Positions 26,542 to 56,308 of a stretch of 64,000 bases of DNA are shown piece after piece. The notes under the pieces were generated by a model. That model saw only the letters and a list, made by a program, of their open reading frames with translations, was not told where the DNA came from and searched no databases. The stretch comes from Alphaproteobacteria bacterium (lineage in GTDB: Bacteria; Pseudomonadota; Alphaproteobacteria; UBA2966), in contig JASLXG010000071.1 in assembly GCA_030740435.1 (NCBI GenBank), forward strand, positions 1,121-65,120, written 5' to 3'. Numbering within the stretch: the first letter of the stretch is position 1; every line of letters begins with the position of its first letter. The translations under genes were made by a program, and so were the position numbers.

Positions 26542-27050
26542 CCCAGCCCCGCCACCACAACGCCCTCGTGTTCGAGCAGCCAGCGTTTGCGCTCGATGCC
26601 GCCAGCGTAGCCGGTTAGCGAGCCGTCGGCGCCGATGACGCGGTGGCAAGGGACAGCGATGCCGACCGGGTTGAGGGCGTTGGCGCGGCCCACGGCGCGG
26701 GCCGCGCCGGGCCGGCCAAGGCCGGCCGCCAGTTCGCCGTAGGTCGTGGTTGCGCCGACCGGGATCGAGCGCAGGGCGGCCCAGACGGTCTCCTGAAAGG
26801 GCGTGCCGGCGAGACGAACCGGCAGTTCGGCAACGGCACCAAGGTCGCCAGCAAAATAACGCCGAACGGCGCTGGAAAACCCGCCGGGATCGGCCGCGGG
26901 CCGCAATTCAAAGGGCCCGAAACGGCGCGCCAACGATCCCTCGAGGCGCTGGCGGCAGTCGGCGAAGTCTAACGTCACTACCGCCGCACCGTCGCTGACC
27001 AGAAGCATGGTGCCCATCGGCGAGGTGATTTCGTCGACCAGCAATTTCAT
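26538..27050 (-). CDS. ogt: Methylated-DNA--protein-cysteine methyltransferase
   Basis: Active site 'PCHRV'. Start at 'MKLLVDEITSPMG', preceded by GGAGAAAGA and abutting the upstream stop. Confidence 0.9.
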   Translation of the reverse strand: MKLLVDEITSPMGTMLLVSDGAAVVTLDFADCRQRLEGSLARRFGPFELRPAADPGGFSSAVRRYFAGDLGAVAELPVRLAGTPFQETVWAALRSIPVGATTTYGELAAGLGRPGAARAVGRANALNPVGIAVPCHRVIGADGSLTGYAGGIERKRWLLEHEGVVVAGLG

Positions 27051-28510
27051 TCTTTCTCCCCCTTCCCAGCCGTCCACAACAGTAATGCCGCATAAGCCCG
27101 CCAGGGCCGCCAGGCCTGCGAAAGCTCCACCAGGCCCTTGGCATCAATCGGCCCGCCACGGGCAGCGGACGCCTTTCGCAAGCCCAGATCGCCGGCGGGA
27201 AAGGCGTCGGGGTCGCCGAGCGCCCGCATGGCGATGTAGTCCGCCGTCCAGGCGCCGATGCCGGGCAACGCCAGCAGGCGGGCCCGGGCCTCGTCCGGCG
27301 GCAGCGCCCCGTCGAAGCTCAGCTCGCCGCTGGCCACGGCGGCGGCCAGGGCCGAAATCGTGGCGGCCCGGGCCCGCGGCAGGCCGATGCCGGTGAGGTC
27401 GGCGTCGGCCAGCCGGGCGGCTTCGGGAAAGACGTGGCCAAGGCCGCCGCAAGCGGTCGGCCGGCCGTTGAGCGTCAGCGGCTCGCCCCACCTCGCCACC
27501 AGGCGGCCGGCCAGCGTCGTCGCCCCCTTGACCGTCACCTGCTGGCCCAGGATGGCGCGCACGCCGAGCTCGAAGCCGTCCCAGGCGCCAGGCAGGCGCA
27601 AGCCGGGAAGCCGCTCCACGTCGGCGCCGATCACCGGGTCTTGGCCAAGCTGGGCCGCCACTTCGGCGGGATCGAGGTCGAGATCGAAAAGGCGCCTCAG
27701 GCGCTGGGCGATACCGATGATCGGCATCGGACGGGCGAGCTTGATGCGGGCCACCAGCGCCCCGGGTGCCCCGGGCGCCACCTCGACCACACCGTGGCTG
27801 CCGGCGACGGCAATGCTGCGGCGGTAGCTCTCGGTCACCTCCTCGACGCCAGGGATGGCGCGGCGGCCGAGGAAATCGCGGATCGCCGGCCAGTGGTAGG
27901 GCTGGCGCAAGCCGAGCTGCAGGCGCAAGTCCGTGGCGCCTCCGGACCAGCCGCCCTGGCGGCGCAAGCTCCCGGGCGGCCGGCCGTAGGCGCCGCGCAT
28001 GGCACCATTGAAGCGGCGCAGGCTGGCAAAGCCCGCCGCCAGCGCCACCTCGGTCATGGCCAGATCGCTCTCGTCCAAGAGTTTTTTGGCAAACAGCAGC
28101 CGCCGGTTCTGAGCCACGGCCAGCGGCGAGGCGCCGACGTGGCTGGCAAAGAGCCGGCGCAAATGGCGTTCGCCCACACCCAGGCGGCCGGCCAGTTGGG
28201 CTACCCCTGCCCCGTCCAGGGCGCCCTCGGCGATCAGCCTGAGCGCCCGTGCCACCGTCGTCGAGGTACCGGCCCAGGCCGGCGTGCCCGGCGCCGCCTC
28301 GGGACGGCAGCGCAGGCAGGGTCGAAATCCGGCCTCTTGCGCCGCCGCGGCCAGCGGGAAGAATTCGCAGTTCTCGAGCTTCGGCGTCCTAGCCGGGCAG
28401 ATCGGACGGCAGTAGATGCCGGTGCTTCGTACGGCGGTAAAGAAGCGTCCGTCGAAGCGGCTGTCGCGGGTGAGTAGCGCCCGGTAGCAGATGTCGCGAT
28501 CGAGATCCAT
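27047..28510 (-). CDS. Ada N-terminal (Zn/AraC) regulator fused to AlkA DNA-3-methyladenine glycosylase II
   Basis: N-terminal Cys4 methylphosphotriester-acceptor region ('RPICPAR...CLRCRP'), an AraC HTH region, then a HhH-GPD glycosylase domain. Confidence 0.85.
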   Translation of the reverse strand: MDLDRDICYRALLTRDSRFDGRFFTAVRSTGIYCRPICPARTPKLENCEFFPLAAAAQEAGFRPCLRCRPEAAPGTPAWAGTSTTVARALRLIAEGALDGAGVAQLAGRLGVGERHLRRLFASHVGASPLAVAQNRRLLFAKKLLDESDLAMTEVALAAGFASLRRFNGAMRGAYGRPPGSLRRQGGWSGGATDLRLQLGLRQPYHWPAIRDFLGRRAIPGVEEVTESYRRSIAVAGSHGVVEVAPGAPGALVARIKLARPMPIIGIAQRLRRLFDLDLDPAEVAAQLGQDPVIGADVERLPGLRLPGAWDGFELGVRAILGQQVTVKGATTLAGRLVARWGEPLTLNGRPTACGGLGHVFPEAARLADADLTGIGLPRARAATISALAAAVASGELSFDGALPPDEARARLLALPGIGAWTADYIAMRALGDPDAFPAGDLGLRKASAARGGPIDAKGLVELSQAWRPWRAYAALLLWTAGKGEKE

Positions 28511-41208: not shown

Positions 41209-41856
41209 CTACTGTTCGGGCTGGTCCTCGCCCTCATCAGCCACCAGGTCGGCGACCTCCGCCGGAGGCCCAGGCTCGCCCTGGGGCGTGGTGTCGCTCT
41301 CACGCAGCACGCTATCGCGCCTGTCGTGATGATCCTTGAAGACCGCTTTGAGTTCGAATACCGCCTCGTCGATGCGCTCCAGGTGGGCCACGGCCAGGTC
41401 GCTGACCGCTTCGCCGCCGGGCGTATTGAGGTAGTCGCCCAGGCCGGCGAGAAAGAAGTCGACGGCGCCCAGGTAGTCGTCGATGCTGCGGGCTCGGCGC
41501 ATGTAGGACTGGTGGACGTTGCGCAGATTGGCCACCAGGATCTTGATCAGGCCCCTGACGAACTTGTCCGAGCGGTCCAATTTGGAGTCCAGCACGGCGC
41601 GGGGAAGGACCACGATGCTGGCAGCCTCCGTCGCCTGGGCGCCGGCCATGCGGGGGCTCTGGTCGATCAGGGCCATTTCGCCGAACATCTCGCCCTTGCC
41701 CAGATGGGCCAGGCTGACGCGTTCGCCGTCGACCGTTTTGAAGACCTCGACGCTGCCCGATTCGATGAGGAAGGCGGTATTTCCTTCGCTCCCCTCGTCG
41801 AAGACGATCTCGCCTTTGCGATAGAGTTTCTTGTTCAGGAATTCGGGGCTGCTCAT
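41209..41856 (-). CDS. Cyclic nucleotide-binding domain protein with uncharacterised C-terminal half
   Basis: CAP_ED motif 'GEMFGEMALI...PRMAGAQA'. The start overlaps the stop of the GMC oxidoreductase gene by 4 nt. Confidence 0.8.
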   Translation of the reverse strand: MSSPEFLNKKLYRKGEIVFDEGSEGNTAFLIESGSVEVFKTVDGERVSLAHLGKGEMFGEMALIDQSPRMAGAQATEAASIVVLPRAVLDSKLDRSDKFVRGLIKILVANLRNVHQSYMRRARSIDDYLGAVDFFLAGLGDYLNTPGGEAVSDLAVAHLERIDEAVFELKAVFKDHHDRRDSVLRESDTTPQGEPGPPAEVADLVADEGEDQPEQ

Positions 41857-43493
41857 CTACTGGTATCCTCACGCGGAACGCCGCGGCCACGGATGTGATC
41901 GGCCATCTTCTCGGCGATCATTATAGTCGGCGCGTTGATATTGCCGTTGGTTATCTGGGGCATGATCGAGCTGTCGACGACGCGCAAGCCCCCAACGCCG
42001 CGGACCCGGCCGGCGGCATCGACAACGGACGCGGGATCGCCGGCCTGGGCGCCCATGCGGCAGGTGCCGCAAGGGTGGTAGGCGGTTTCCACGGCGCCCC
42101 GGATGAAGGCGTCGATTTCGTCGTCCGATGTTACCTCGGCGCCCGGCGAAAGCTCGGCACCGCGATAGGGCGCGAAAGCCTCCTGGGCCAGCACCTCGCG
42201 GGTCAGCCGAAGGGCCTGGCGCATGGCCAGGATATCGTCCTCGTGGCTGAGGTAGTTGAACAGCAGGCTGGGGTGCTCGTGAGGATCACTTGAACGCAGC
42301 CTGAGGCGGCCGCGGCTCTGGGGGCGGTTGGGGCCGACGTGAACCTGGTAGCCCCAGCCCGGGGCGGCGGAGGAGCCGTCGTAGGCAATGGCGCCGGGCA
42401 GAAAATGGTATTGCAGATCGGCATAGTCGAGATCGGGACGGGAGCGGATGAAGGCACCGGATTCGAAATGGTTGGTGGCACCGAGACCTTGCTTGAAGAG
42501 AAGCCAACGCAAACCGATCGCCAGCTTGCGCCAGGGCGCAAGCTGGCGGTTCAGCGACACCGGCCGGGTGCATTCGACCTGCAGGAAGAATTCCAGGTGG
42601 TCCTGCAGGTTTTGGCCCACTCCCGGCAGGTGGTGGCGCACGGGCAAGCCGAATTCGGCCAAATGTTCGCCGTCGCCGATGCCGGCCAGCATCAGCAATT
42701 GCGGCGAGGCGAAGGGGCCGGCTGAAAGAATAATTTCGCGCCGCGCCCGGGCACGGTGGCGAACGCCGCCCTTTTCGTATTCGAGGCCCACCGCCCGGCC
42801 CTCGTCGAAAAGAATTTCCCGCGTCGTGGCAAAAGTCTCCAGCGCCAGGTTGGGGCGCCCCAGCGCCGGCTTCAGGTAGGCGCCGGCGGCCGAACAGCGC
42901 CGGCCCTTGCGCACCGTCATCTGCATCGGGCCGAAGCCTTCCTGCTGGCGGCCGTTGGGATCTTCGGTCGAGCCATAGCCGGCCTGGCGGCCGGCTTCGG
43001 CAAAGGCCCGGTAGAGCGGGTTTCGCATGCTGCCGGCGCTGATGCCCAAGGGACCATCGTGCCCCCGGAAGGCCGCGTCGCCTCCGGCGAAGCTTTCGGC
43101 CCGGCGGAAATAGGGCAGCACCTCGGCGAAGCTCCAGCCCTCGGCGCCGGCCTGGGCCCAGGCGTCGAAGTCGCCGGCATGGCCGCGCACGTAGACCATG
43201 CCGTTGATGGCCGAGGAGCCGCCGATGACCTTGCCCCGGGCCTGCTTGATGCGCCGCCCGTCGAGGCCCGGCTCAGGCTCGCTCAGGTAGCCCCAGTTGA
43301 AGCGCGGCAGATTCATGGCCAACGAAAAGGCCGTCGGCATGTGGAGCAAGAGGTTGTTGTCGCGGCCACCCGCCTCCAGCACCAGGACACTGTCGCGGCC
43401 GGATTCGCTCAAACGATTGGCCAGCACGCAGCCGGCCGACCCGGCGCCCACGACGAGATAATCGAAGCTGCGTTCGCCAACCATATCCTGCAT
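41853..43493 (-). CDS. GMC family oxidoreductase, choline dehydrogenase-like
   Basis: 546 aa with FAD motif 'DYLVVGAGSAGCVLANRLSE' and the GMC signatures. Assignment to BetA is by overall resemblance only. Confidence 0.85.
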   Translation of the reverse strand: MQDMVGERSFDYLVVGAGSAGCVLANRLSESGRDSVLVLEAGGRDNNLLLHMPTAFSLAMNLPRFNWGYLSEPEPGLDGRRIKQARGKVIGGSSAINGMVYVRGHAGDFDAWAQAGAEGWSFAEVLPYFRRAESFAGGDAAFRGHDGPLGISAGSMRNPLYRAFAEAGRQAGYGSTEDPNGRQQEGFGPMQMTVRKGRRCSAAGAYLKPALGRPNLALETFATTREILFDEGRAVGLEYEKGGVRHRARARREIILSAGPFASPQLLMLAGIGDGEHLAEFGLPVRHHLPGVGQNLQDHLEFFLQVECTRPVSLNRQLAPWRKLAIGLRWLLFKQGLGATNHFESGAFIRSRPDLDYADLQYHFLPGAIAYDGSSAAPGWGYQVHVGPNRPQSRGRLRLRSSDPHEHPSLLFNYLSHEDDILAMRQALRLTREVLAQEAFAPYRGAELSPGAEVTSDDEIDAFIRGAVETAYHPCGTCRMGAQAGDPASVVDAAGRVRGVGGLRVVDSSIMPQITNGNINAPTIMIAEKMADHIRGRGVPREDTSR

Positions 43494-43563
43494 GTCGATT
43501 TCGTCCCCGACCCGATAGCGGCCATCTTGCCCCTCTCGGGTACAGCGGCATAGGTTAGTTCGC

Positions 43564-43788
43564 GTGTCGGATGATGGCGAATTTCTCGACCGCCTGGCGG
43601 CCGCCGTGCGCCGTCATTTCGGCGCCGACGCCCGGGCGCCGGTCTTCGAGCTTGAGGAAGGCGACGATTTGGAGCGGGGCTTCGTCATGCCCTTCATCGC
43701 CGGCGAGACCCTGCCGCGGCACATCGTACGCGATCCGGCCCTGGCCGAGGCCCGGTGGGAAATGCGGGCCAGTCGTCATTCATATTGA
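43564..43788 (+). pseudogene. Probable remnant of an APH-like phosphotransferase gene
   Basis: The 74-aa ORF contains 'FVMPFIAGETLPRHIVRDPALAEAR', resembling an internal segment of about 350-aa phosphotransferase-family kinases. It lacks the rest of the protein and ends in an AT-rich patch. Confidence 0.35.
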
Positions 43789-43807
43789 TAAATAACAACT
43801 ATTCTTC

Positions 43808-43836
43808 CGAGTTCAGCGCTGAACTCGTTTCTTTTG
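43808..43836. terminator. Perfect 20-nt palindrome plus T-run between the remnant ORF and the mttB-like gene
   Basis: cgagttcagc|gctgaactcg followed by tttctttt on the + strand. It lies 40 nt past the mttB-like stop on the - strand. Confidence 0.45.
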
Positions 43837-43875
43837 GCCAACCGAGGGGCCTCAAGACAAAACGGCGCCGCCGCG

Positions 43876-45339
43876 CTATTCGAGTTCCGTTACCGGTAGC
43901 TGGTCCATGCCGTGTTGGGCGGCGTAGGCGGCGATGATGCGGTCGGCTTCGCGTTTGCGTTCGGGGTCGATCTGGCGGGGCGTGTAGTCGGCCAGGATCT
44001 CAGCCACGCGCGCCCGGGCCCGGCCGAAGGCGTCCTTGCTGCCTTGGGCCTCGAATTCCCGGCGCTGGCCGCGGTCGATGAGGTCGGAGGGCAGGAAACA
44101 TTCGTCCTTGAACCACTTCAGTGTATGGGGGGAAGAGAGAAAACCCGTGGTAGTGGCACCGCGTTCGATGATGACATCGAGCGCCAGGGCCTCGTCGCCG
44201 GTGTCGATGGGCCGGATCAGGCGCTTGGCCATGCCGCAGATCTCGTTGTCGATGAGCAGTTTCTCGGTGCTGATGACGTTGGCGTACTCCAGCGTGCCCG
44301 AGCCGCGGATGAGGTTGATGCGCGCCAGCGCCATGGCATTGAGCGCCGCCCCGGTTTCCTCGCCGGCCTGGTAGTCGACGCATTTGCTGTCGGCACGGCC
44401 GGTATTGGTCGACGAAGGCAAGCCGAGCCGCTTGGCGATCTGGCCGATGGCGGCGCCCATGATGATGGCCTCGCTGGCGGCCTGGCAGGCCGTGCCCTTG
44501 CGCATGTCCATGATCGAGGGGCCGCCGCCGAAAATCACCGGCGCGCCCGCCCGCACGGTCTGGCTGACCACGATGGTGGCCAGGTTCTCGGCCGTGTGCT
44601 GGACCAACGTTCCGGCCAGTGTCACCGGCGACGAGCCGCCGGCCAGCGGGATCGGAATCATCAGGGTGGGAAAGTTCTTCTCGGCCAAAAAGACGGCGTT
44701 CTCGGCCACCACGTCGGTCAGGCCCAGCGGCGACGAGGGATTGACGCAGAGGAGCGCGATGGGCCGCTGCGAGAGAGCCTTGTCGCCACCGGCCAGCGCC
44801 GCCATGACGCCCCAGATGACGGCGATGTCGTCAGTGCCGAAGGCGCCGCTGAACATGGGTTTCGGGGAATAGAGCAGCGCCAGGTAATAGCGGTAGGCGC
44901 TGACGATGGGCTTGGGCACGTCCGAGGGCACGAAAGAGCCGCTTTGCAGATCGATGTGGTCGCAGCGGTCGATGATCTTGGTGTGGTTGACGAGATCTCG
45001 CGAGGTGGCTTCGCGCAGGCCCTCGGTGTCCGGATCGTAAACGTAGGGCACCGTCGAGCCGGCCACGAAATTGACCTCGTCGCCGGCCAAGACGATGGGG
45101 GCGTCGCGGTCCTGGCGGTAGAGCCTGACCTCCGAGGGGCAGGTCTTGAGACAGCCTTCCAGCAAATCGCGGCCCAGCCGCAGGCGCTCGCCATCGCGTT
45201 CGACGCCGGATTGGCCGGTCAGCATGTCGAGCACCCGGTCGCTGCCCACATGGACGCCGACGCGGCCCAGCACCTCGAAGGCGCCGTCGATGATGCGGTC
45301 GGTTTCCGCCTCGCTCAGGAACGTCAGTCGCGGTTGCAT
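43876..45339 (-). CDS. MttB-superfamily methyltransferase (non-pyrrolysine member)
   Basis: 487 aa resembling trimethylamine methyltransferase family proteins throughout. There is no in-frame TAG. Lies directly downstream of a corrinoid protein gene. Confidence 0.85.
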   Translation of the reverse strand: MQPRLTFLSEAETDRIIDGAFEVLGRVGVHVGSDRVLDMLTGQSGVERDGERLRLGRDLLEGCLKTCPSEVRLYRQDRDAPIVLAGDEVNFVAGSTVPYVYDPDTEGLREATSRDLVNHTKIIDRCDHIDLQSGSFVPSDVPKPIVSAYRYYLALLYSPKPMFSGAFGTDDIAVIWGVMAALAGGDKALSQRPIALLCVNPSSPLGLTDVVAENAVFLAEKNFPTLMIPIPLAGGSSPVTLAGTLVQHTAENLATIVVSQTVRAGAPVIFGGGPSIMDMRKGTACQAASEAIIMGAAIGQIAKRLGLPSSTNTGRADSKCVDYQAGEETGAALNAMALARINLIRGSGTLEYANVISTEKLLIDNEICGMAKRLIRPIDTGDEALALDVIIERGATTTGFLSSPHTLKWFKDECFLPSDLIDRGQRREFEAQGSKDAFGRARARVAEILADYTPRQIDPERKREADRIIAAYAAQHGMDQLPVTELE

Positions 45340-45361
45340 GCCCTACTCCCGGAAAACGCAT

Positions 45362-46012
45362 TCATTCGTTGATGCCGACCAGAACACGAACCTTGTCCAG
45401 TGCGTCGATGGCGTCGGCGCCGTAGGCATCGGCGCCGATCTCGTCGGCCCAGCGCTGGTTGGCCACGGCACCGCCGATCAGCACCCGCACCTGGTGGCGC
45501 AAGCCGGCCTGGGCCAACGCCTCGACGACGTCGGCCTGCACCTGCATGGTGGTGGTGAGCAACGCCGACAGCCCGACCACCTGGGCCCCGCTGCGTTTGA
45601 CCTCGTCGACGAAGCGTTCGGGCGCCACGTCACAGCCCAGGTTGACGACCTCGAAGCCGGCCGCCGAGAGGGTGACAGCCACCAGCTTCTGGCCCAGATC
45701 ATGCAGATCTCCCTTGACCGTACCGATGACCACGGTGCCGCGTTTTTTCAGTGTGCTGCCGCTGGCCTCGAGCGCCGGGGTCAGCAGCTCGACGGCCTTG
45801 GCGAAGAGCTCGCCGCCGATCACCAGTTCGGGAATGAAAACGCTGCCCTCGGCGAAGCGCGCACCCAGTTGCTCGAGACCGGCGGCCAGGGCATCGGCGA
45901 TCTCCAACGGCGGCACTTCGGCCGCCAGTTCGGCACCGACCCAGGCCAAAACCTCGGCTTCGCGGAGCCCGCAGACCGCCTCGACAACGTCGAAATCGGG
46001 ATCCTTCGCCAT
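45362..46012 (-). CDS. Cobalamin-binding corrinoid protein (MtbC/MttC-like)
   Basis: 216 aa. A B12-binding_2 cap precedes a Rossmann-like domain with 'GDLHDLG' (DxHxxG), 'GLSALLTTT' (SxL) and 'LIGGAV' (GG). Confidence 0.9.
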   Translation of the reverse strand: MAKDPDFDVVEAVCGLREAEVLAWVGAELAAEVPPLEIADALAAGLEQLGARFAEGSVFIPELVIGGELFAKAVELLTPALEASGSTLKKRGTVVIGTVKGDLHDLGQKLVAVTLSAAGFEVVNLGCDVAPERFVDEVKRSGAQVVGLSALLTTTMQVQADVVEALAQAGLRHQVRVLIGGAVANQRWADEIGADAYGADAIDALDKVRVLVGINE

Positions 46013-46027
46013 ACCACGCCCTCCTGA

Positions 46028-46822
46028 TCAAGAACCCGTAAATTTGGGCGCACGCTTTTCCTTGAAAGCCAACCGTCCCTCGGCGTAATCGGCGCTGTCG
46101 AAGCAGGCCGCAACCATGGCCTCGAGCGCCGCCAGGTCGCGATCCTGGGGATCCCTGCAAGCCTCGCCGACGGCGCGTTTGGCGGCCCGGATGGTGAGCG
46201 GTGCGTTGGCGGCGATGCTTTCGGCCAGCTCGCGAACCGTGGTTTCCAATTCGGCCGGCGGCACCAGGCGGTTGATGAGCCCGATGCGCAGCGCCTCTTC
46301 GGCCGAAAGCCTGCGCGCCGTATACAGGATCTCGCGGGCCAGGGCCGGGCCCACCAGGTCGTTGAGCACCTTGACGCCGGCAAAGCCATAGCCCAGCCCC
46401 AGCCGCGCCGCCGGAATGGCGAACTGGGCGCCCTCGGCGGCGATGCGGATGTCGGCCGCCAAGGCCGTGGCCAGGCCGCCGCCCAGGCAGTAGCCCCGGA
46501 TCATGGCAATCAGCGGTTTTTCGAAATTGGCCAGCGCCGTACGGCCGCCCTCCGAGACCCGGGCGTATTCCTCGGCCGCCTCGGCCGAGGAGCGCTTGTC
46601 GTCGAACTCGGAGATGTCGGCCCCCGAGACGAAGGCCTTGTCGCCGGCCCCCGTCATGACCACCAAGCGCACCGCCGGGTCCTGTTGAAAGGCCGGCAGG
46701 ATCTCACCCATGGCCTGCCACATTTCCAGCGAAAGGGCGTTGTGGCGCTGGGGGTTGTTGAAGGTCATCCAGCCGATGGCGCCTTCCCGGCGGGCGAGCA
46801 TTTTCTCCGTTGCCAGCTTCAT
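46028..46822 (-). CDS. Enoyl-CoA hydratase/isomerase family protein
   Basis: 264-aa crotonase fold with 'MTFNNPQRHNAL', 'FVSGADISEF' and 'GYCLGGGLATALAADIRIA'. Confidence 0.9.
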   Translation of the reverse strand: MKLATEKMLARREGAIGWMTFNNPQRHNALSLEMWQAMGEILPAFQQDPAVRLVVMTGAGDKAFVSGADISEFDDKRSSAEAAEEYARVSEGGRTALANFEKPLIAMIRGYCLGGGLATALAADIRIAAEGAQFAIPAARLGLGYGFAGVKVLNDLVGPALAREILYTARRLSAEEALRIGLINRLVPPAELETTVRELAESIAANAPLTIRAAKRAVGEACRDPQDRDLAALEAMVAACFDSADYAEGRLAFKEKRAPKFTGS

Positions 46823-46824
46823 TC

Positions 46825-47091
46825 AGTACCCACTTTCACATTAGGATGGCACGTCTGACGGCCAGGAAGGACCACCGGCCAGGAGCGCGGCCCGCCGTGA
46901 TGGTGGTCCATCACAAGGGCCGCGGGACGACGTCCGATGGTCCTTCATGGCCGCCTTTCGGGTCGCTTTTCCGGCGCTGTGGAGGGCGTCAGCAGCGCTT
47001 GCCGATGGCCCCGCATCGGCGGCCCGCTGCTTCCTACCCACAGCGCCGGCTAAGCGATCAGACGTACCATCCTAATGTGAAAGTGGGTACT
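46825..47091. mobile_element. MITE-like element or structured intergenic insert bounded by 34-bp inverted repeats
   Basis: Left arm 46825-46858 (agtacccactttcacattaggatggcacgtctga) is the reverse complement of right arm 47058-47091, with 33/34 matching. The interior has further nested stems. No ORF with coding character. Confidence 0.55.
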
Positions 47092-48286
47092 AAATCACCC
47101 TTCGAGCGCGCAAGTCGGCCAGGGCGGCGCTGTCGTAGCCCAGGGCGCTGAGGATCTCGTCGTTGTGCTGGCCCGCTGCCGGGGTCGCGAGGCGCGCCTG
47201 TTGCGGTCTTTCGGCGCCCTCCAGATGCACCGGCTGGCCGACGATGGCGAGCTTGCCTCGTACCGGGTGCTGCATCTCCCAGGCAATGCCCAGGTGTTGG
47301 ACCTGGGGATCGTTGAAGGTTTGGTCGATGCTGTTGATGGGCCCGCAGGGCACACCACGGGCGTTGAGTTCCTCGACCCATTCGGCGCTGGAGCGTGTCG
47401 CCGTGATGGCGCCGATCTCGGCATTCAGGAGTTGGCGGTTCTTGGACCGAGCGCCGGCCGTGGCAAAGCGTTCGTCCTGGGCCAGCTCAGTGGCGCCGAT
47501 GTGGTCGAGCAGGCGCTCCCACAAGCGGCCGCCCGGCGCCGCGATGTTGATGGCACCGTCGGCCGTGGGAAAGACGCCCATGGGGATGCCGGTGGGATGG
47601 TCGTTGCCGGCCTGGCCGGGCACGTCGTGGTCGATCAGCCAGCGCGCCGCCTGGAAATCGAGCATGCTGATCATGGCCTCCAACAGTGAGGTGTGGACCC
47701 ATTGCCCTTTTCCCGTGCGGCCGCGTTCGATCATGGCCAGCAAAATGCCCTGGGCCAGGTACATGCCGGCGGCGAGGTCGGCGATGGGGATGCCGACGCG
47801 CACCGGTCCCTGGCCCGGGAGACCAGTGATCGACATCAGGCCGCCCATGCCCTGGGCGATCTGGTCGACGCCGGCGCGGCTGCTGTAGGGGCCATCCTGG
47901 CCAAAGCCCGAGATGGAGCCGTAGATGAGCCTGGGATTGTGGGCCTGGAGGCTGTCGTAGTCGACGCCGAGCCGGTGCTTGACCTCGGCCCGGAAGTTCT
48001 CCACCACGACGTCGGCCTGGGCCACCAGTTCGAGAAAGATGCGGTGGCCGTCGGGGTTCTTGAGGTCCAGCGTCAGGCTGCGCTTGTTGCGATGCAGGTT
48101 GAGGAAATCGGGTGCCGCGCGCGAGCCGCCGACGCCGTCGTTGTCGCTGCCGGGATCGGGCGGCACCTCGATCTTGATGACGTCGGCGCCCCAGTCGGCG
48201 AGCTGGCGCACCGCCGTGGGCCCGGCCCGGGCGTGGGTCAGGTCGAGCACGCGGATATCGGCAAGCGGCAGGGGGGTATCTGTCAT
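47090..48286 (-). CDS. Family III CoA-transferase (CaiB/BaiF family)
   Basis: 398 aa. N-terminus 'IRVLDLTHARAGPTAVRQLADWGADVIKIE' is diagnostic of the family. Confidence 0.9.
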   Translation of the reverse strand: MTDTPLPLADIRVLDLTHARAGPTAVRQLADWGADVIKIEVPPDPGSDNDGVGGSRAAPDFLNLHRNKRSLTLDLKNPDGHRIFLELVAQADVVVENFRAEVKHRLGVDYDSLQAHNPRLIYGSISGFGQDGPYSSRAGVDQIAQGMGGLMSITGLPGQGPVRVGIPIADLAAGMYLAQGILLAMIERGRTGKGQWVHTSLLEAMISMLDFQAARWLIDHDVPGQAGNDHPTGIPMGVFPTADGAINIAAPGGRLWERLLDHIGATELAQDERFATAGARSKNRQLLNAEIGAITATRSSAEWVEELNARGVPCGPINSIDQTFNDPQVQHLGIAWEMQHPVRGKLAIVGQPVHLEGAERPQQARLATPAAGQHNDEILSALGYDSAALADLRARRVI

Positions 48287-48304
48287 GGGATTCTTGTCTG
48301 TTGT

Positions 48305-49166
48305 TCAGTTTTCGACGGTTCGGGATTCGATGTCCAAGAGGCGCTGGAGATCGATGGTGGCATGTTGGGCTTCCTGCAGCTCGCTCCAATCCTGCGGCGG
48401 CCGCGAGGTGATGGCGAATCCGTCAGCCATTTCGGCATAGACGGCGCGCATGGCTTCATAAGCCGCCAGCAGCGGCGTCGACGGATCGACCAGGATACGA
48501 AATCCCAGCGCCCCCATGTCGGCCGGCGTCATGTCCATGCCGGCCAGCCAGCCCGGCCGCAAGAACAGCATCAGCGGCCCCTCCAGGCGCTCGCCGACAA
48601 AGCGCACGTCGTCGGCCGTTAAAGGGCAGCGGCAACAGCACGTCGGCACCGGCGGCACGGTAGGCCTCGAGGCGGCGCAGCGCATCGTCCATGGAACTGG
48701 CGCGCACGCCGTTGGTGCGGGCGATGATCAGGGTATCCGGATGGCGCCGTGCCGCCACCGCCTCGCGCACCTTGTCGACCATCTCTTCGAGCGTCACCAT
48801 GTGCTCGATGCCGACGTGGTGATGGGCCCGCTTGGGCAGGATCTGGTCCTCGATCTCCAGGGCCGCGAAGCCGGCCGCCTCGGCCAGCGACACGGTGCGG
48901 TGCATGTGCATGGGATCGCCCCAGCCGGCGGCCGCGTCGAGGATCAGCGGCAGCTCGCAGGCACTGCGGATCTCCAGCCCGGCCTGGGCCATCTCGGTCA
49001 GCGTGAGATTCGCCTCGAGGTGGGTGTTGAGGTAGCCCGAGGCACCGCCGCCGAGGTAGAGCGCGCGAAAGCCCGCCTCGGCGGCCATCCTGGCCATCAG
49101 CGGATTGAGCACCAGCGGCGCGCAAACCGGTTCGTCAGCCTCGATCATCTGGCGCAAATTTGACAC
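48305..49166 (-). pseudogene. PEP mutase / isocitrate lyase superfamily gene with a +1 frameshift near 48621-48626
   Basis: Track ORF 48456..49166 reads correctly up to 'AGADVLLPLP'. The continuation 'LTADDVRFVGERLEGPLMLFL...' is in ORF 48305..48685, one frame over. The total of 862 nt is not divisible by 3. Confidence 0.75.
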
Positions 49167-49196
49167 GTCCGGTGTTCCTTCATGCTGCGGTCGATT

Positions 49197-50228
49197 CTAA
49201 TGCGCCACGCCCAGGTCCGGCTCCTGGAGATTGAGCCGCACCATGTTGCCGAGCAACTGGACGATGGCCTGGGAGCTTTCGCCCTCGCAGTTGTCGATAC
49301 TGAAGGCGGTGGAACAGTTCATGGCCTCCAGGCCGCCGGCGGCCAGGCAATCCCTGAGAAGGCGGCCCTCCATCTCGGGCCCGTGCATGAGGTCGGGATT
49401 ACCGAGCAGGAAAGCCAGCGCCGCCTCGACGCCGTAGGCGCCCCAGTTCGAGATCATGGCCGGAATCAGCACGTCGGTCTTGACCGCACAGACGTTGCCG
49501 CCCGGGCTGCCCTCGGTCTGGCTCTCGCGGCCGAAAGGCATGATCTCCTTGGCCTCATCGTGGATGCGGCCGAAGCCGACCTCGTTGCCATAGTCGCCGA
49601 TGCCGACGCTGAAGACGCCGCGTGCCGCCGCCTCGTCGACGACCGGGCTAAGGTCGAGAAGCTCAAGCTCGGGCCCCAGGACCCAGCCCGTGGCCGAATG
49701 CACGATGCCGTGCTCGCTGGGCCCCACGCGCTCGATCGAGATCACCGCCTTGGGCTGGAATTCGTCGCAGATCGCGGCGGCCCAGGCCGCCACCTCTGAG
49801 GCCTGCGTGGGCGCCACGGCCAGCGCCGCACCCAAGCGCTGGCGGGCCTCGTCGGGGCTGCGCACCATGATATGGGCGGCCTCGCTGCTGGCCACGATGG
49901 GGTCTCTGTGGTTGGCCTCGCAGACGTAGACGGGAACTGCCCCCAGCCCCTTGTGGAGCGCCCGGGCCAGAGCCGCGGCGCCGGGCGGGCCGTCGTTCTC
50001 GCCCTTGGGCAACCAGGGCGGGCAACCGGCACCGGTCATGATGAAAACCACATCGCCCTTGCCCACCGCCGCCACCAACCCCTCGGCGGCCCGCAGGCAG
50101 AGCGGCCGGCCGCCGCCCTCGCGTCGCGCCGCCTCGTAGAGCGGCAGAAGCGTGTCATAGGGCACGGCCCGGTTCTTGAACTCGATGGAGATCAGGCGGT
50201 CGATATTGTTGCCGATGGTCTCGGGCAT
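49197..50228 (-). CDS. DUF4392 / D-glutamate cyclase-like protein
   Basis: ATG 50228 follows GGAGGAACAGCC. The 343 aa resemble the DUF4392 family. The upstream half of the 632-aa track ORF is an out-of-frame shadow of the next gene. Confidence 0.75.
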   Translation of the reverse strand: MPETIGNNIDRLISIEFKNRAVPYDTLLPLYEAARREGGGRPLCLRAAEGLVAAVGKGDVVFIMTGAGCPPWLPKGENDGPPGAAALARALHKGLGAVPVYVCEANHRDPIVASSEAAHIMVRSPDEARQRLGAALAVAPTQASEVAAWAAAICDEFQPKAVISIERVGPSEHGIVHSATGWVLGPELELLDLSPVVDEAAARGVFSVGIGDYGNEVGFGRIHDEAKEIMPFGRESQTEGSPGGNVCAVKTDVLIPAMISNWGAYGVEAALAFLLGNPDLMHGPEMEGRLLRDCLAAGGLEAMNCSTAFSIDNCEGESSQAIVQLLGNMVRLNLQEPDLGVAH

Positions 50229-50245
50229 GGCTGTTCCTCCAGCGC

Positions 50246-51037
50246 CTACTCTCCGCGGAACTGGGGTTTGCGCTTTTCCGTCATGGCGGCAACGCCCTCG
50301 GCGAAGTCGGCGGAATCGATGAGCATGCTTTGGACGTAGACGTTGTGTTCCCACTCCGCCGCCAGGGTCGATTCGAGGCCGCGCCGGATGCCCTCCTTCA
50401 TGGCCCGGAGCGCCAGCGGCGGCCCGGCGGCGAGCTTGGCGGCGAGCTTGCCGGCGGCCTCCATCAGCGCGTCCGCCGCCACCACCTCGCGCACCAGGCC
50501 GATCTCCTGGGCCTCGGCCGCCGCCACCCGGCTCCCCAGCATCAGCATCTCGTTGGCCTTGGCCAGGCCCACCAGGCGGGGCAGCAGGTACATGCCGCCG
50601 AGCGGCGAGAGCAGGCCGAGATCGATCCAGGATTCGCGAAAGACGGCGTCTTCCGAGGCAATGCGGAAATCGCAGGCCAGGGCAATCTCGCAGCCCGCCC
50701 CGGCGGCCGGGCCATTGACGGCGGCCACGGTCGGCTTGGGACAGAGCTTGACGGCGCGCACGCCGGCGCCAAAGAAGCTGTAGACGGTGTTCTTCACCTC
50801 GAAGGGCCGGGCTTCGGTGAGCTCGACCAGGAAATCGTAATCGCCGCCGGCGGAGAAACCCTTGCCGGCGCCGGTAATCACCACCACCCGCACGGCATCG
50901 TCGCCGCCCAAGTCCTCGAAGGCCTCGATAATTTCCTCCATCATCGGCGGGATCAGGGCGTTGAGCACGTCGGGCCGGTCGAAGGTGAGCCAGCCGATGC
51001 CGTCTTTCTTTTCGACACGGATGTACTTGTAGGTCAT
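50246..51037 (-). CDS. Enoyl-CoA hydratase/isomerase family protein
   Basis: 263-aa crotonase fold with 'LTFDRPDVLNAL', 'FSAGGDYDF' and 'NGPAAGAGCEIALACDFRIA'. Confidence 0.9.
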   Translation of the reverse strand: MTYKYIRVEKKDGIGWLTFDRPDVLNALIPPMMEEIIEAFEDLGGDDAVRVVVITGAGKGFSAGGDYDFLVELTEARPFEVKNTVYSFFGAGVRAVKLCPKPTVAAVNGPAAGAGCEIALACDFRIASEDAVFRESWIDLGLLSPLGGMYLLPRLVGLAKANEMLMLGSRVAAAEAQEIGLVREVVAADALMEAAGKLAAKLAAGPPLALRAMKEGIRRGLESTLAAEWEHNVYVQSMLIDSADFAEGVAAMTEKRKPQFRGE

Positions 51038-51217
51038 GGAACCTCGCTGCTTTTGGAAATGTCCGTCTGGAGACCTCGGGGACCATCATGCACAATCTGG
51101 GCGGCGGGCACGAGTCGGCGGGCCGGTGGCGCGGCCAAGCAGATCATTAGCCCGCATTTGCCGCCTGTTCCGATCCGCCACTGGGTTTGGTCACCATCCT
51201 GCGTCGCTTCACGGCTT

Positions 51218-52804
51218 TTAGTTCACCAACATTCTTGGCGACATGGATTTTGCGAAGCGTTTTCGCAATCTTAGACTGGCATCAGAAAACAACACGGAAA
51301 AAACGTTATGATCATCGGAATAGGGCTCCGAATCACCAAGAAGAAATGGATTGATCTTCCGGACCTCTGTGACTGAAATATTAACCATACTGGCCACCCG
51401 GGCATGCACATCAGTTGATTCCATTTGGTATTTTTCGGGTCTTTCACCAGCAGTTCCAACGATGAAAATATTGCCCCCCTGAATACCGGAAAGAAATATG
51501 TTGGGAAAAGCATAGGCCACGGTTGCCATCAGTCGAAAATTTGGCTCTTTGTTAAATTCATCAAAACCAGTATTCATTATCACAGGCCCTTTGTCTTTCA
51601 AGCAATTTCGCAAATCCAGAAAAAACCCCTTTGTCATTAGATAGTCCGAGACATTATCCCCCCAAAACAAATCGACTATTATGACATCGAATTTGTTGTT
51701 ACATCTACGAACGAATGTTCGTGCATCTTCAAGGTAGATATTCACTCGATTGCGGTCAAATCCAAAATTTTCAGTTGCGGCCCGCAGCGCTGTTGGATTT
51801 ATTTCCATAACCGACACCTCAAGACCGTGTTGACTCAGGTGCCGCGGGACAATACCCGCACCAAGTCCCAATACCAAGGCATCACGCGCCTTCGGTGCGT
51901 AGATATGAGCAAAGGACTCGAGAACGTAGGTGTACATGGTTGCTGATTGATAATTCAGAGTCGTTTGATTTTGAATTAATCCATCTTGAACAAGGTATCT
52001 TTCGGTGGTGTCCGGCGCCTTTCTGGATTGCACATCCGCCACCTTGATATTACCGAACACCGATGTGTACTCGGCGCGAATTTTGAATTCGAGATCTGCG
52101 GAGGATGATGAGTCTATTAGTTCCAAATAGAGATTTCTTCCCATGAAAAACAACCCGACAAATACCGTCATGGCTAGACCGCCAATCAGAAGACGCCGCT
52201 TATCTATCCGAGGGAGTGAATTTGAAAGTAACACCAAAATCATGGCCGCACCGCACATTATCAAACCCAACAACAGAACTGCCCGGTGATTCGTCATATT
52301 AGGAATGAAAACAAAGGCCGTCACAATGACACCCAGCACCGAACCCAAGGTGCTGATGAAGAAAACTCTTCCGGCGCCCGCATCCCCGGTCCTGTCTTCG
52401 CGACGTTGCAAGCATATCAGCAGAGGATTCATCGCCGACAATGCGACCAACGGCAGCGCCAGGAGCAAGGTGGCGCCGAGGAAGCTTCCGACAATCAAGT
52501 TTCCCTCGGCCAGAATCTTGAATGTAATCGGATAGATCGCGGCGGCGACGACGATCGAGGCCGTCGAGAGCAATGGCGCCGCCAGGAAGCGGGTCTCGAG
52601 GGTTTGCTCGCCATGGCGCTGGGATAGACGTCCGCCGAAATGATAGCCGACTGCCAGGAACAACAACGTTGTCGAGAGAATGCCCGACCAGATATACAGG
52701 CTGACCCCGAAATAGGGGGTCATGATGCGTGACGCCAGCACCTCCAGCGAGAGCGTCACCGCACCGGTCAGGAACACCAGGGCCTCGTTGCGATTTATCG
52801 TCAA
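51218..52804 (-). CDS. Membrane-fused spermidine/spermine synthase-like methyltransferase-fold protein (low-GC gene)
   Basis: The N-terminal half has about 7 hydrophobic segments. The C-terminal half has 'LVLGLGAGIVPRHL...VMEINP...FDVIIVDLF'. The TTG 52804 start is provisional. GC is about 43% against about 67% in the flanks. Confidence 0.7.
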   Translation of the reverse strand: MTINRNEALVFLTGAVTLSLEVLASRIMTPYFGVSLYIWSGILSTTLLFLAVGYHFGGRLSQRHGEQTLETRFLAAPLLSTASIVVAAAIYPITFKILAEGNLIVGSFLGATLLLALPLVALSAMNPLLICLQRREDRTGDAGAGRVFFISTLGSVLGVIVTAFVFIPNMTNHRAVLLLGLIMCGAAMILVLLSNSLPRIDKRRLLIGGLAMTVFVGLFFMGRNLYLELIDSSSSADLEFKIRAEYTSVFGNIKVADVQSRKAPDTTERYLVQDGLIQNQTTLNYQSATMYTYVLESFAHIYAPKARDALVLGLGAGIVPRHLSQHGLEVSVMEINPTALRAATENFGFDRNRVNIYLEDARTFVRRCNNKFDVIIVDLFWGDNVSDYLMTKGFFLDLRNCLKDKGPVIMNTGFDEFNKEPNFRLMATVAYAFPNIFLSGIQGGNIFIVGTAGERPEKYQMESTDVHARVASMVNISVTEVRKINPFLLGDSEPYSDDHNVFSVLFSDASLRLRKRFAKSMSPRMLVN

Positions 52805-53491: not shown

Positions 53492-55027
53492 TCATATGTT
53501 GCGACCGGTGCCCTGCCAGTATGGATCGCGCAGCCGGCGTTTGAAGATCTTGCCCGAGTCCTCGCGAGGAAGGTCGCCCTGAAATTCGATGACCCGCGGG
53601 ATCTTGAAGGCTGCCACGTGCTCGCCGAGGTGCTGGCGCACCGCCTCGGCGCTGAGTTCGGCGCCGGCCTCGGGCTCGATGTAGGCGCACAGCTCCTCGC
53701 CGAATTCCTCATGGGGAATGCCGAAGACGGCACAGTCATGGACACCCGCCAGCGAGCCCAGAGCCGCCTCGATCTCGGCCGGGTAGATGTTGACGCCGCC
53801 CGAGATCACCATGTCGTTCTTGCGATCGCAGAGGAACAGATAGCGGTCCTCGTCCAGGTAGCCCATGTCGCCCACGGTGACCAGGTCGTCCCAGCCGATC
53901 TCGCGGCGTTTGTCGTCCTTGCCGTGGTAGGTGAAGTCGGGGTAGGCGTGGATGTTGAGATAGATCTCGCCGACCTCTCCGACCGGCAACTCCTTGCCGT
54001 CGTCGCCGCGGATGCGCACCTGGCCGCCGCGCACCGGGGTGCCCACGGTGCCGGGCTTGGCCAGGGCCTGGTGGCTGTCGTTGAAGATGACGATGCCGGT
54101 TTCGGTGGCGCCGTAGTATTCGCCGATCACCGGCCCCCACCAGTCGATCATGCGCCGCTTGACCTCGGGCGGACAGGGCGCGGCGCCGTGGACCACGAAT
54201 TCCAGCGAGGAGACGTCGTAGCGCGACCGAACCTCGGCCGGCAGCTTTAGGAGCCGCATGAACATGGTCGGCACCATGTGCATGTGGCTGAGGCGGTGGA
54301 TATCGATCAGACGCAGCAGTTCCTCGGCGTCGAAGCGCGGCTGCAGCACCACCAGGCCCGGCTGCTGCACCGCCCTGAGGCCGTAGGAGTTGGGCGCCGA
54401 GTGGTACATGGGCCCGGTGATGGCCGCGCGGATTTCCTGGCCGGGAAGGAATCCGAAGCCATGGGCCACGGTCTCGGTGATGCGGGCGGCGTTTTCCGGG
54501 GTGGCGGGCCGGCGCCGCACGCCCTTGGGCCGGCCGGTGGTGCCCGAGGTATAGATGATGTTGGCTCGCAGGCGCTGGAGCGGCCCGCTCCAGGGTTCGT
54601 GGCCGCTGCTCCAAGCGTTCCAGTCGAGCGTGCCCGGCGGTAGCACGCAGGCCTCAGCCGCCAAGCCGTATGCGGCTGTGACCTCGGGCGGTGTCGGCAT
54701 CAGTAGCGCCGTCACCCCTGCCGGCAGGTCGCCGGCGAGGACGGGATAGAGGTCGGCGTGCATCACGATGACCCGGGCGCCGCAGTCCTCGAGCATGTAG
54801 AGCGCCTCCTCGGTCACCGAATGCCAGTTGATGGGCACGGCATAGGCGCCCAGGAGCGCGGCCGCGGCGGCGACCTCGAAAAGGGCGAAATCGTTGCGCA
54901 ACATCATGGCGATGGTGTCGTTCTCGCCGATACCCAGATCACTGAACGCCGTTGCCGCGCTGGCCGCACGCTGGGCCAGTTCGTCCTGGGTCAATTGGCG
55001 TTCGCCGCTGATGATCAATCCCGCCAT
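53492..55027 (-). CDS. AMP-dependent acyl-CoA synthetase/ligase
   Basis: Start at '[13 protein letters not shown]'. Carries '[14 protein letters not shown]' and '[21 protein letters not shown]'. Confidence 0.9.
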
Positions 55028-55132: not shown

Positions 55133-56308
55133 ATGGCCGACAAGAGCTTTCTCGAGTGGCCCTTTTTCGCCCACCACCACCGCGATCTGGCCCAGCGCAT
55201 CGAGGCCTTTGCGGCCAGCGAGCTGGCGCCGCTGCTGGAGCTCGCCGACGACAGCGAGGCCACCCTCGATGCCACCTGCCGCGAGCTGGTGGCAACGCTC
55301 GGCCGGGCCGGCTTCCTGGCGCCCTGCGTGGTGGCCGACGAGGGCGGGCGTTTCGACGTGCGCAGCCTGTGTCTCAGCCGCGAGATTTTGGCCCGTCTGG
55401 GCGGCCTCGCGGATTTCTCCTTTGCCATGCAGGGCCTCGGTTCAGCACCGATCTCGTTATTCGGCACGGCGGAGCAGAAGGCGCACTACCTGCCGCCGGT
55501 GGCAGGCGGCGAACACGTCGCCGCCTTCGCGCTCTCGGAGCAGAACGCGGGCTCCGACGTGGCTGCCATGGCCACCACGGCTGAGGCCGACGGCGCCGAC
55601 TACGTGCTCAATGGCTCGAAGACCTGGATTTCCAACGGCGGCATCGCCGACACCTACGTGGTCTTCGCGCGTTCGGGCGAGGCCGGCGGCGCACGCGGGC
55701 TTTCGGCCTTCATCGTCGAGGCCGGAACGCCGGGCTTCGAGATCGCCGGGCGCATCCCGCTGATGGCGCCCCATCCCATCGCCACCTTGGCCTTCACGGA
55801 CTGCCGGGTGCCGGCCGCCAACCGCCTGGGGGGGCCGGGCGAGGGCTTCAAGATCGCCATGGCGACGCTCGACGTCTTCCGCACCACGGTGGGCGCAGCG
55901 GCGCTGGGCTTTGCCCGGCGTGCCTTCGACGAGGCCCTGGGGCGCACGCGTGAACGCGAGATGTTCGGCCAGCAGCTGGTCGATTTCCAGCTCACCCAGG
56001 CCGCCATCGGCGACATGGCGGTGGGCATAGATACCTCGGCGCTGGCCGTCTATCGCGCCGCCTGGACCCGGGACACGACGGGGCGGCGCATCAGCCGCGA
56101 GGCCTCGGTGGCCAAGTTCCACGCCACCGAGACGGCGCAACACGTGATCGACACGGCGCTGCAACTCCACGGCGGCCTGGGCGTGGTCAAGGGCCAGGCC
56201 GTCGAGGCGCTCTATCGCGACATCCGGGCGCTGCGCATCTACGAAGGTGCCTCGGAGGTGCAGAAACTGATCATCGCCGGGGCGATTTTGAAGGGCGACG
56301 GGCAGTAG
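55133..56308 (+). CDS. Acyl-CoA dehydrogenase
   Basis: Start at '[12 protein letters not shown]'. Carries '[11 protein letters not shown]' and the C-terminal '[13 protein letters not shown]'. Divergent from the synthetase gene. Confidence 0.9.

Follow-up and report, generated by a model that had tools for sequence, protein, structure and literature searches.

An MttB-superfamily branch with arginine at the pyrrolysine position, next to CoA-enzyme genes in a marine alphaproteobacterium

MttB-superfamily methyltransferases that lack pyrrolysine (non-Pyl) set the fate of methylated osmolytes in the oceans and the gut, and few of their substrates have been assigned. In Methanosarcina barkeri, MttB carries pyrrolysine at a UAG codon and is paired with the corrinoid protein MttC (PDB 7XCL-7XCN). 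The non-Pyl TIM barrel MtgB of Desulfitobacterium hafniense (PDB 2QNE, 9YCE) is paired with MtgC and has leucine at the pyrrolysine position, and mutagenesis together with a substrate-bound crystal structure assigned its glycine betaine binding to Y97, R312, H348 and F356, of which R312 is reportedly retained by every member whose function is known (PMC13080624). In aerobic marine bacteria, MttB-family demethylation of glycine betaine (GBT) is supported by a set comprising MtgC, MtgD, MetF2, RamA and DUF1638, and in the MtgBCD(E) split methionine synthase/GBT demethylase of Ruegeria pomeroyi several MtgB proteins share one MtgC (PMC12478193). A CoA-dependent comparison is offered by the Escherichia coli cai genes, which encode the CoA-transferase CaiB, the crotonase CaiD, the ligase CaiC and the dehydrogenase CaiA. 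Here we examine an adjacent pair of genes, encoding an MttB-superfamily methyltransferase (MT1, hereafter the window MttB) and a corrinoid protein (CorP), at the end of a run that also holds CoA-enzyme genes. The run lies in a 64,000-nucleotide stretch (the window; G+C = 66%) of contig JASLXG010000071.1, assembly GCA_030740435.1, from an alphaproteobacterium of GTDB lineage UBA2966. An initial annotation had read it as one module coupling CoA activation to corrinoid-dependent demethylation. We find instead that the array is a concatenation of independent modules, conserved within one genus only. What is new here, as judged from residues and phylogeny, is a rare and uncharacterised MttB branch with arginine at the pyrrolysine position. 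The pair is encoded as follows.

43876-45339, minus strand: MttB-superfamily methyltransferase (MT1), 487 aa; MTTB, PF06253
45362-46012, minus strand: corrinoid protein (CorP), 216 aa; B12-binding_2 (PF02607) and B12-binding (PF02310)

The window MttB is a full-length family member, with residues 3-470 matching profile positions 29-493 of 500 in PF06253 (295.7 bits, cut-off 25). Its AlphaFold2 model has a pLDDT of 95.1 and superposes on both M. barkeri MttB (7xcl) and MtgB (9yce) with a TM-score of 0.93 and a root-mean-square deviation of about 1.8-1.9 Å. By sequence, its best solved relatives are, in order, D. hafniense MtgB (208 bits, 29% identity), Sinorhizobium meliloti 4yyc (156 bits) and M. 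barkeri MttB (144 bits), and the model for true MttB, TIGR02369, scores 340 bits, under its equivalog cut-off of 525. The initial annotation had reported a gene without an amber codon, and indeed the frame holds no internal stop; where the M. barkeri gene has UAG, an arginine codon stands here, so that Arg315 aligns with the pyrrolysine (X) of 7xcl and with the leucine of MtgB.

The substrate pocket departs further from that of MtgB. At MtgB Y97, R312, H348 and F356 (MtgB residues in our alignment carry the chain numbering +2), the window MttB has S95, S310, R345 and A353, and all four binding residues are thus replaced. We surveyed these positions by aligning about 120 homologues; those 48-100% identical to the window MttB make up what we call the Arg clade. 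Across this clade the residues found there are, in the same order, S/T, S/A/G, R and A/C (rarely K/G), so that the R312-equivalent arginine ascribed to the characterised members, MtpB, MtcB, MtyB and MthB included, is missing throughout. Arg345 is invariant across the clade, the motif TNxGRADSK is near-invariant, and Arg315 has a single exception, a Cys sequence. That protein, P0020, also has Lys in place of Ala at 353.

Phylogeny gives the same separation. In a maximum-likelihood tree that took in MtgB, 4yyc and the host's own paralogs, the Arg clade is monophyletic (support 100/99) and the companions of the window MttB are uncharacterised metagenome proteins. MtgB falls on the opposite side, grouped (100/99) with 4yyc and the host paralogs on contigs C233 and C48. 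The binding residues and the tree together rule out an MtgB identity. The window MttB is therefore, on these criteria, a distinct branch of the superfamily, and a rare one, since a set of 5.8 billion proteins contains only ~40 clusters (90% identity) of the Arg clade. The placement among non-Pyl MttB proteins made in the initial annotation holds as far as superfamily membership and possession of its own CorP go, and does not extend to the MtgB clade.

These features bear on the likely substrate. Two arginines in the pocket, Arg315 and Arg345, suggest an acidic methylated onium compound, and the substrate is probably not glycine betaine. Because R312 is missing and an arginine sits at the pyrrolysine position, the substrate is likely to be new to the superfamily. 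If this is true, the clade would represent a new MttB-superfamily specificity, in which arginine replaces pyrrolysine and the acid-binding site is relocated, whatever its relation to the neighbouring CoA genes, and it offers a well-defined target for biochemistry. Within the same genome, the C233 paralog would be the better glycine betaine candidate, since it carries MtgB-type Y/R/L/H residues, as does 4yyc.

The nearest outgroup clade (proteins P0042-P0120, loci L005-L080) comes from Zixibacteria, Aminicenantes, Syntrophomonadaceae, Bathyarchaeia and Asgard archaea. Its signature is His at the MtgB R312 position, Leu/Met at the pyrrolysine position, Ser at H348 and Glu at F356; it likewise lacks R312, and a corrinoid gene is often adjacent.

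As the initial annotation had stated, CorP has a DxHxxG motif (GDLHDLG), which marks it as a His-on corrinoid protein. Its closest solved relative is MttC (7xcn_M, 160 bits), its TIGR02370 score of 179.1 bits is below the cut-off of 215.3, and the NCBIfam models for MtgC reach only 146-150 bits against cut-offs of 310-370. In every context examined, the CorP gene lies directly upstream of the MttB orthologue, at a distance of 7-193 nt and of ~22 nt in most alphaproteobacterial-type loci. The pair resembles MtgB/MtgC in having an adjacent, cognate His-on partner and in the expected attack of Co(I) on an N-methyl group, and differs from the Ruegeria system in that the MT1 has its own dedicated CorP. 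Unlike the case of MtgB/MtgC, no gene for a pterin methyltransferase or RamA lies near the pair. Both had been reported missing from the window; the genome search places them on another contig, C38, with a second RamA gene on C7.

C38:2592-3470: pterin-binding methyltransferase (MT2), 292 aa; Pterin_bind
C38:621-2576: RamA, full RACo/RamA
C7:28818-30749: second RamA

The C38 genes belong to a one-strand run (C38:621-7506) encoding a corrinoid protein, a URO-D family methyltransferase, DUF1638, a MetF C-terminal domain protein, MTHFR, the pterin methyltransferase and RamA. This set appears to match the one described for aerobic marine bacteria (PMC12478193), and we infer that the window MT1 partners with it. 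Because MT2 and the RamA set are encoded on C38, methyl transfer to tetrahydrofolate (THF) in trans is feasible. In this respect the system would parallel that of Ruegeria, with which it shares an aerobic-type marine alphaproteobacterial host and an MT1 whose supporting proteins (pterin methyltransferase, MetF paralog, RamA and DUF1638) are encoded away from it. As judged from residue pattern, the likely counterparts of the Ruegeria MtgB proteins in this genome would be the MtgB-like paralogs on C233 and C48, not the window MttB.

In all, the genome holds 6 MttB loci, 25 matches to the B12-binding domain, 4 pterin-binding domains and 2 RamA genes. The five further MttB loci (C233, C48, C227, C35 and C92) are 29-35% identical to the window MttB; the C35 gene looks split and that on C92 is cut by the contig end. 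The host is unusually corrinoid-rich for a marine alphaproteobacterium, and its nearest public relatives are labelled Rhodospirillaceae. Such a genome fits the recent picture in which cobalamin-dependent demethylation is widespread in aerobic marine bacteria.

Upstream of the pair, five genes continue the run on the same strand. Pfam and NCBIfam searches bear out the gene calls, families and coordinates of the initial annotation for all seven co-directional minus-strand genes, which extend from 51037 down to 43876 with intergenic gaps, in the order ECH1 to MttB, of 17, 30, 18, 267, 15 and 22 nt.

50246-51037, minus strand: crotonase (ECH1); ECH_1 (PF00378), 215.5 bits, no equivalog cut-off reached
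49197-50228, minus strand: DUF4392/D-glutamate-cyclase-like C-terminal domain protein (GLUCM-like_C); PF14336, 176.8 bits
48305-49166, minus strand: PEP-mutase/isocitrate-lyase (ICL) family gene (PEPm); PF13714 on the N-terminal part only, 1-bp frameshift
47090-48286, minus strand: family III CoA-transferase (CoAT); CoA_transf_3 (PF02515), 395.6 bits
46823-47089, no strand: inverted-repeat element of 267 nt, resembling a miniature inverted-repeat transposable element (MITE), separating the stop codon of CoAT from the start codon of ECH2
46028-46822, minus strand: crotonase (ECH2); ECH_1, and NF004781 passed at 384 bits against a cut-off of 291

Whether the CoA genes and the methyltransferase pair form one unit can be judged from synteny. 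A scan with one genome per species returned four genomes with an MttB at 82-90% identity, all of them metagenome-assembled genomes of marine Alphaproteobacteria/Rhodospirillaceae; the next matches, at <=40%, come from anaerobic bacteria and archaea. The full array is kept only in a same-genus genome (L003/G001), whose MttB is 90% identical, and this is also the only one among 60 relatives to have the MttB gene at all. The clade occurs in 1 of 401 Alphaproteobacteria, namely the window's own genome, and in none of 400 evenly drawn others. Six other contexts of MttB orthologues (87, 82, 88, 60, 64 and 63% identity) share the CorP gene only, and their neighbours are mutually unrelated (AtuA/TRAP/MFS; Na/H exchanger; radical SAM/FAD oxidase; LysR/SSF/PhyH; GGR/AAA-OmpA). 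The synteny test therefore fails for the coupled module proposed in the initial annotation.

The CoA genes have their own, much wider distribution. CoAT homologues (54-70% identity) are found in 72 of the 401 Alphaproteobacteria, and an ECH2 homologue (46-68% identity) adjoins the CoAT orthologue in most of 29 short loci. When nine CoAT loci were enlarged, a crotonase lay directly downstream in 9/9, and MttB, CorP, PEPm and DUF4392 were found in 0/9. Three loci of this gene pair were inspected, and among their neighbours are carboxylate transporters of the TRAP and TTT types, an HpcH/HpaI lyase, an acyl-CoA dehydrogenase, an SDR protein and a GntR regulator. Of the NCBIfam models, succinate-glutarate CoA-transferase comes nearest to the window CoAT, with 307 bits where the cut-off is 750. 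DUF4392 has a different history again: among the 60 relatives it matches in the same-genus genome only, apart from one distant hit at 36%, and its homologues (59-69% identity) have as neighbours Opp/Dpp-type peptide ABC transporters, an amidase or hydantoinases. These contexts rule out a conserved larger CoA cluster that includes DUF4392. The genome has ~56 crotonase, ~20 CoA-transferase, ~65 ligase and ~40 acyl-CoA dehydrogenase loci, ~180 in all, so adjacency to a CoA gene is cheap, and in genomes of this kind tight co-directional packing is weak evidence of a shared pathway.

Comparison with L003 also explains the largest gap in the run. The 267-bp inverted-repeat element that the initial annotation had pointed out is real, being bounded by terminal inverted repeats of ~34 bp, and L003 is an empty site, in which the TGA of CoAT directly abuts the ATG of ECH2. 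The genome has 7 copies of the element at 80-93% identity (window 46823-47089; C233:3785-4049; C175:2399-2675; C171:5982-6258; C98:4176-4428; C33:5213-5501; C99:1-170), the family measures ~265-290 bp, and the majority of copies are wedged into its usual target, the short space separating same-strand genes. This indicates that the gap is a MITE-like insertion and not a regulatory element of the cluster. As RNA, the element is predicted to fold at -202 kcal/mol (z = -16), with a closing stem covering the bases just 5' of the ECH2 ATG. A known RNA was considered for the gap and rejected, the gap being a multi-copy MITE; Rfam searched over 43400-51400, the gap included, gave no riboswitch or other RNA family and nothing below E = 0.99. 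The window copy also provides CoAT with a new stop codon, and one of the other copies sits just upstream of the C233 MttB paralog.

The two genomes of the genus differ at further points. Besides the MITE, the window alone has a fused MFS/spermidine-synthase-like gene in a low-GC islet, which is replaced by 18 bp in L003, and a gene for a cNMP-binding protein. L003 alone has a 1.7-kb insert between DUF4392 and PEPm, holding two opposite-strand open reading frames and splitting ECH1-DUF4392 from the rest; these frames (L003:4781-6207) encode 280 and 169 aa and have no Pfam match. L003 further holds an intact 332-aa APH gene (PF01636) that converges on MttB; in the window only a remnant of this APH gene is left.

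Despite these changes, the genes of the array appear to be maintained. For every one of them dN/dS between the window and L003 is 0.12-0.21 (MttB 0.16, CorP 0.12), a pattern of substitution that shows them all to be functional. The frameshift reported in PEPm proves to be a 1-bp indel relative to an intact gene of 286 aa in L003, the only gap in a 2076-nt alignment. The PEP_mutase match occupies 48456-49166, the second frame carries on to 48305, and the shift lies near 48621-48626. Because both PEPm halves have a low dN/dS (0.12-0.19), the frameshift is taken to be either recent or a sequencing error.

The reading we favour, with moderate confidence, is that MT1, a member of a new MttB subclade acting on an acidic substrate, forms an autonomous module with CorP, and that this module merely follows a carboxylate CoA-transferase/hydratase unit of ordinary type. 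The run would be a genus-specific mosaic of separately inherited units, one of which, CorP followed by MttB, would be a self-contained methyl-donor module. In it, the central pocket of the TIM-barrel MttB would take up a methylated onium compound, whose acidic group would be held by Arg315 and Arg345, and the Co(I) of His-on CorP would accept the methyl group. The 292-aa pterin methyltransferase of C38 could then unload methyl-Co(III) CorP in trans to give methyl-THF, which the adjacent MetF-like reductase would process, and RamA from C38 or C7 would re-reduce Co(II). The second unit, CoAT followed by a crotonase and here preceded by the ICL/PEP-mutase-family lyase gene, would be an ordinary CoA-dependent unit of carboxylic-acid catabolism of a kind widespread in Alphaproteobacteria. 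In an ancestor of the genus, the methyltransferase pair would have come to lie 15 nt behind the crotonase, and because of this spacing it is probably co-transcribed with the CoA genes without being part of one pathway with them. A promoter scan found no convincing internal promoter upstream of CorP, the counts not exceeding those in shuffled sequences.

Several observations weigh against this mosaic reading. In L003 the genes PEPm-CoAT-ECH2-CorP-MttB are tightly packed, with gaps of ~18, 0, 14 and 22 nt, and such packing combined with purifying selection over the array has the look of a working operon. In addition, a separate lineage (L081/L001) has a family III CoA-transferase gene, its product 36% identical to the window CoAT, two genes downstream of MttB. 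A genus-specific functional recruitment of the pair may have occurred, and can be envisaged in two forms.

One is the model of the initial annotation narrowed to this genus, a newly assembled pathway in which MttB and CorP demethylate an acidic quaternary amine or sulfonium compound and the remaining skeleton receives CoA from the CoA-transferase, is hydrated by one or both crotonases and is split by the ICL-family lyase. The co-directional genes with their 15-30-nt gaps, the five-gene core retained in L003, the low dN/dS of every gene and the CoA_transf_3 gene near MttB in the other lineage agree with such a pathway, as do the two pocket arginines, which suit an acidic substrate that would be left as a carboxylate after demethylation. 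We nevertheless consider it unlikely: the synteny is absent beyond the genus, the window lyase gene is frameshifted, a highly structured MITE parts CoAT from ECH2, opposite-strand frames sever ECH1 and DUF4392 from the rest in L003, the number of CoA-enzyme loci makes adjacency cheap, and the Cai models are not reached (see below). Distinctly unlikely, in our view, is the other form, in which the Arg-at-Pyl MttB and CorP were recruited in one genus to the end of a CoA-transferase/hydratase/lyase operon, so that an acidic onium osmolyte is demethylated on cobalamin and its skeleton then degraded as a CoA thioester. The osmolyte in that event may be, for instance, a betaine of the dicarboxylic or long-chain kind, or a sulfonium compound like dimethylsulfoniopropionate (DMSP). 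The ligase, dehydrogenase and crotonases nearby prompted us to consider demethylation of DMSP with DmdB/C/D-like neighbours; as an explanation of the locus it was rejected, there being no Dmd-specific model among the listed hits and no literature linking the clade to DMSP.

The following features flank the run and enter into the remaining comparisons.

53492-55027, minus strand: generic acyl-CoA synthetase (PRK12406); NF009071, 776 bits against a cut-off of 701
55133-56308, plus (opposite) strand: acyl-CoA dehydrogenase; best model acryloyl-CoA reductase, 292 bits
51218-52999, minus strand: fused MFS/spermidine-synthase-like gene of the low-GC islet; NF037959, 153 bits, GC 0.58-0.60
43808-43827, no strand: perfect palindrome of 20 nt with a T-run after it, on the 3' side of MttB and probably marking where the transcription unit ends; terminator-like sites at 43808-43827 (plus) and 43874-43862 (minus)
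43638-43755, no strand: remnant of the APH-family phosphotransferase gene; 80.5% alignment to L003 12618-12735
41853-43493, minus strand: choline dehydrogenase BetA, which forms a unit of its own 383 nt downstream of MttB; TIGR01810, 774.6 bits against an equivalog cut-off of 732.1

With the synthetase and the dehydrogenase, all four superfamilies of the E. coli cai pathway occur within 12 kb, and to this level the Cai-like labels of the initial annotation are sound. As identities they do not stand. The Cai equivalog models remain far under their cut-offs (CaiB 116/413, CaiD 156/500, CaiA 135/540 bits), for each protein other family models score higher, and the best 25 NCBIfam models for the ligase include none for CaiC. 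These scores rule out the cai pathway. A further difference is that CoAT followed by a crotonase is a widespread alphaproteobacterial unit which, in the loci inspected, stands beside carboxylate transporters and in one locus a lyase.

BetA raises the question of whether the pair could instead be a glycine betaine system of the MtgB/MtgC type, which with BetA would carry choline through glycine betaine to dimethylglycine. The initial annotation had flagged both a choline-dehydrogenase-like flank and a DMGDH-like gene, and correctly so, as BetA exceeds its equivalog cut-off and a gene with the DMGDH domain architecture is also present in the window. BetA lies near the array in L003 too, and by sequence the window MttB has MtgB as its nearest solved relative. 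Even so, we regard this as very unlikely, given that all four glycine-betaine-binding residues are exchanged (Y97 to S, R312 to S, H348 to R, F356 to A), the protein falls outside the well-supported MtgB clade, the C233 paralog has the MtgB-type residues, the MtgC models stay far below their cut-offs on CorP, and BetA stands beside the MttB orthologue in none of the six contexts from outside the genus.

That the run is a decaying accessory island with the methyltransferase pair out of use, as the frameshifted lyase gene, the MITE insertion, the APH remnant, the low-GC islet and the differing gene content of the two genomes might suggest, is highly improbable, since MttB and CorP are intact, have host-like G+C at third codon positions (0.88 and 0.84) and low dN/dS against L003, and have the trans machinery present.

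The cNMP-binding gene of the window (41209-41856) overlaps the BetA stop codon and is largely missing from L003, and thus represents another recent indel. Elsewhere in the window, at 27047-28510, a fused Ada Zn-binding/AraC HTH/AlkA glycosylase gene encodes a protein of 487 aa that is unrelated to MttB despite its equal length.

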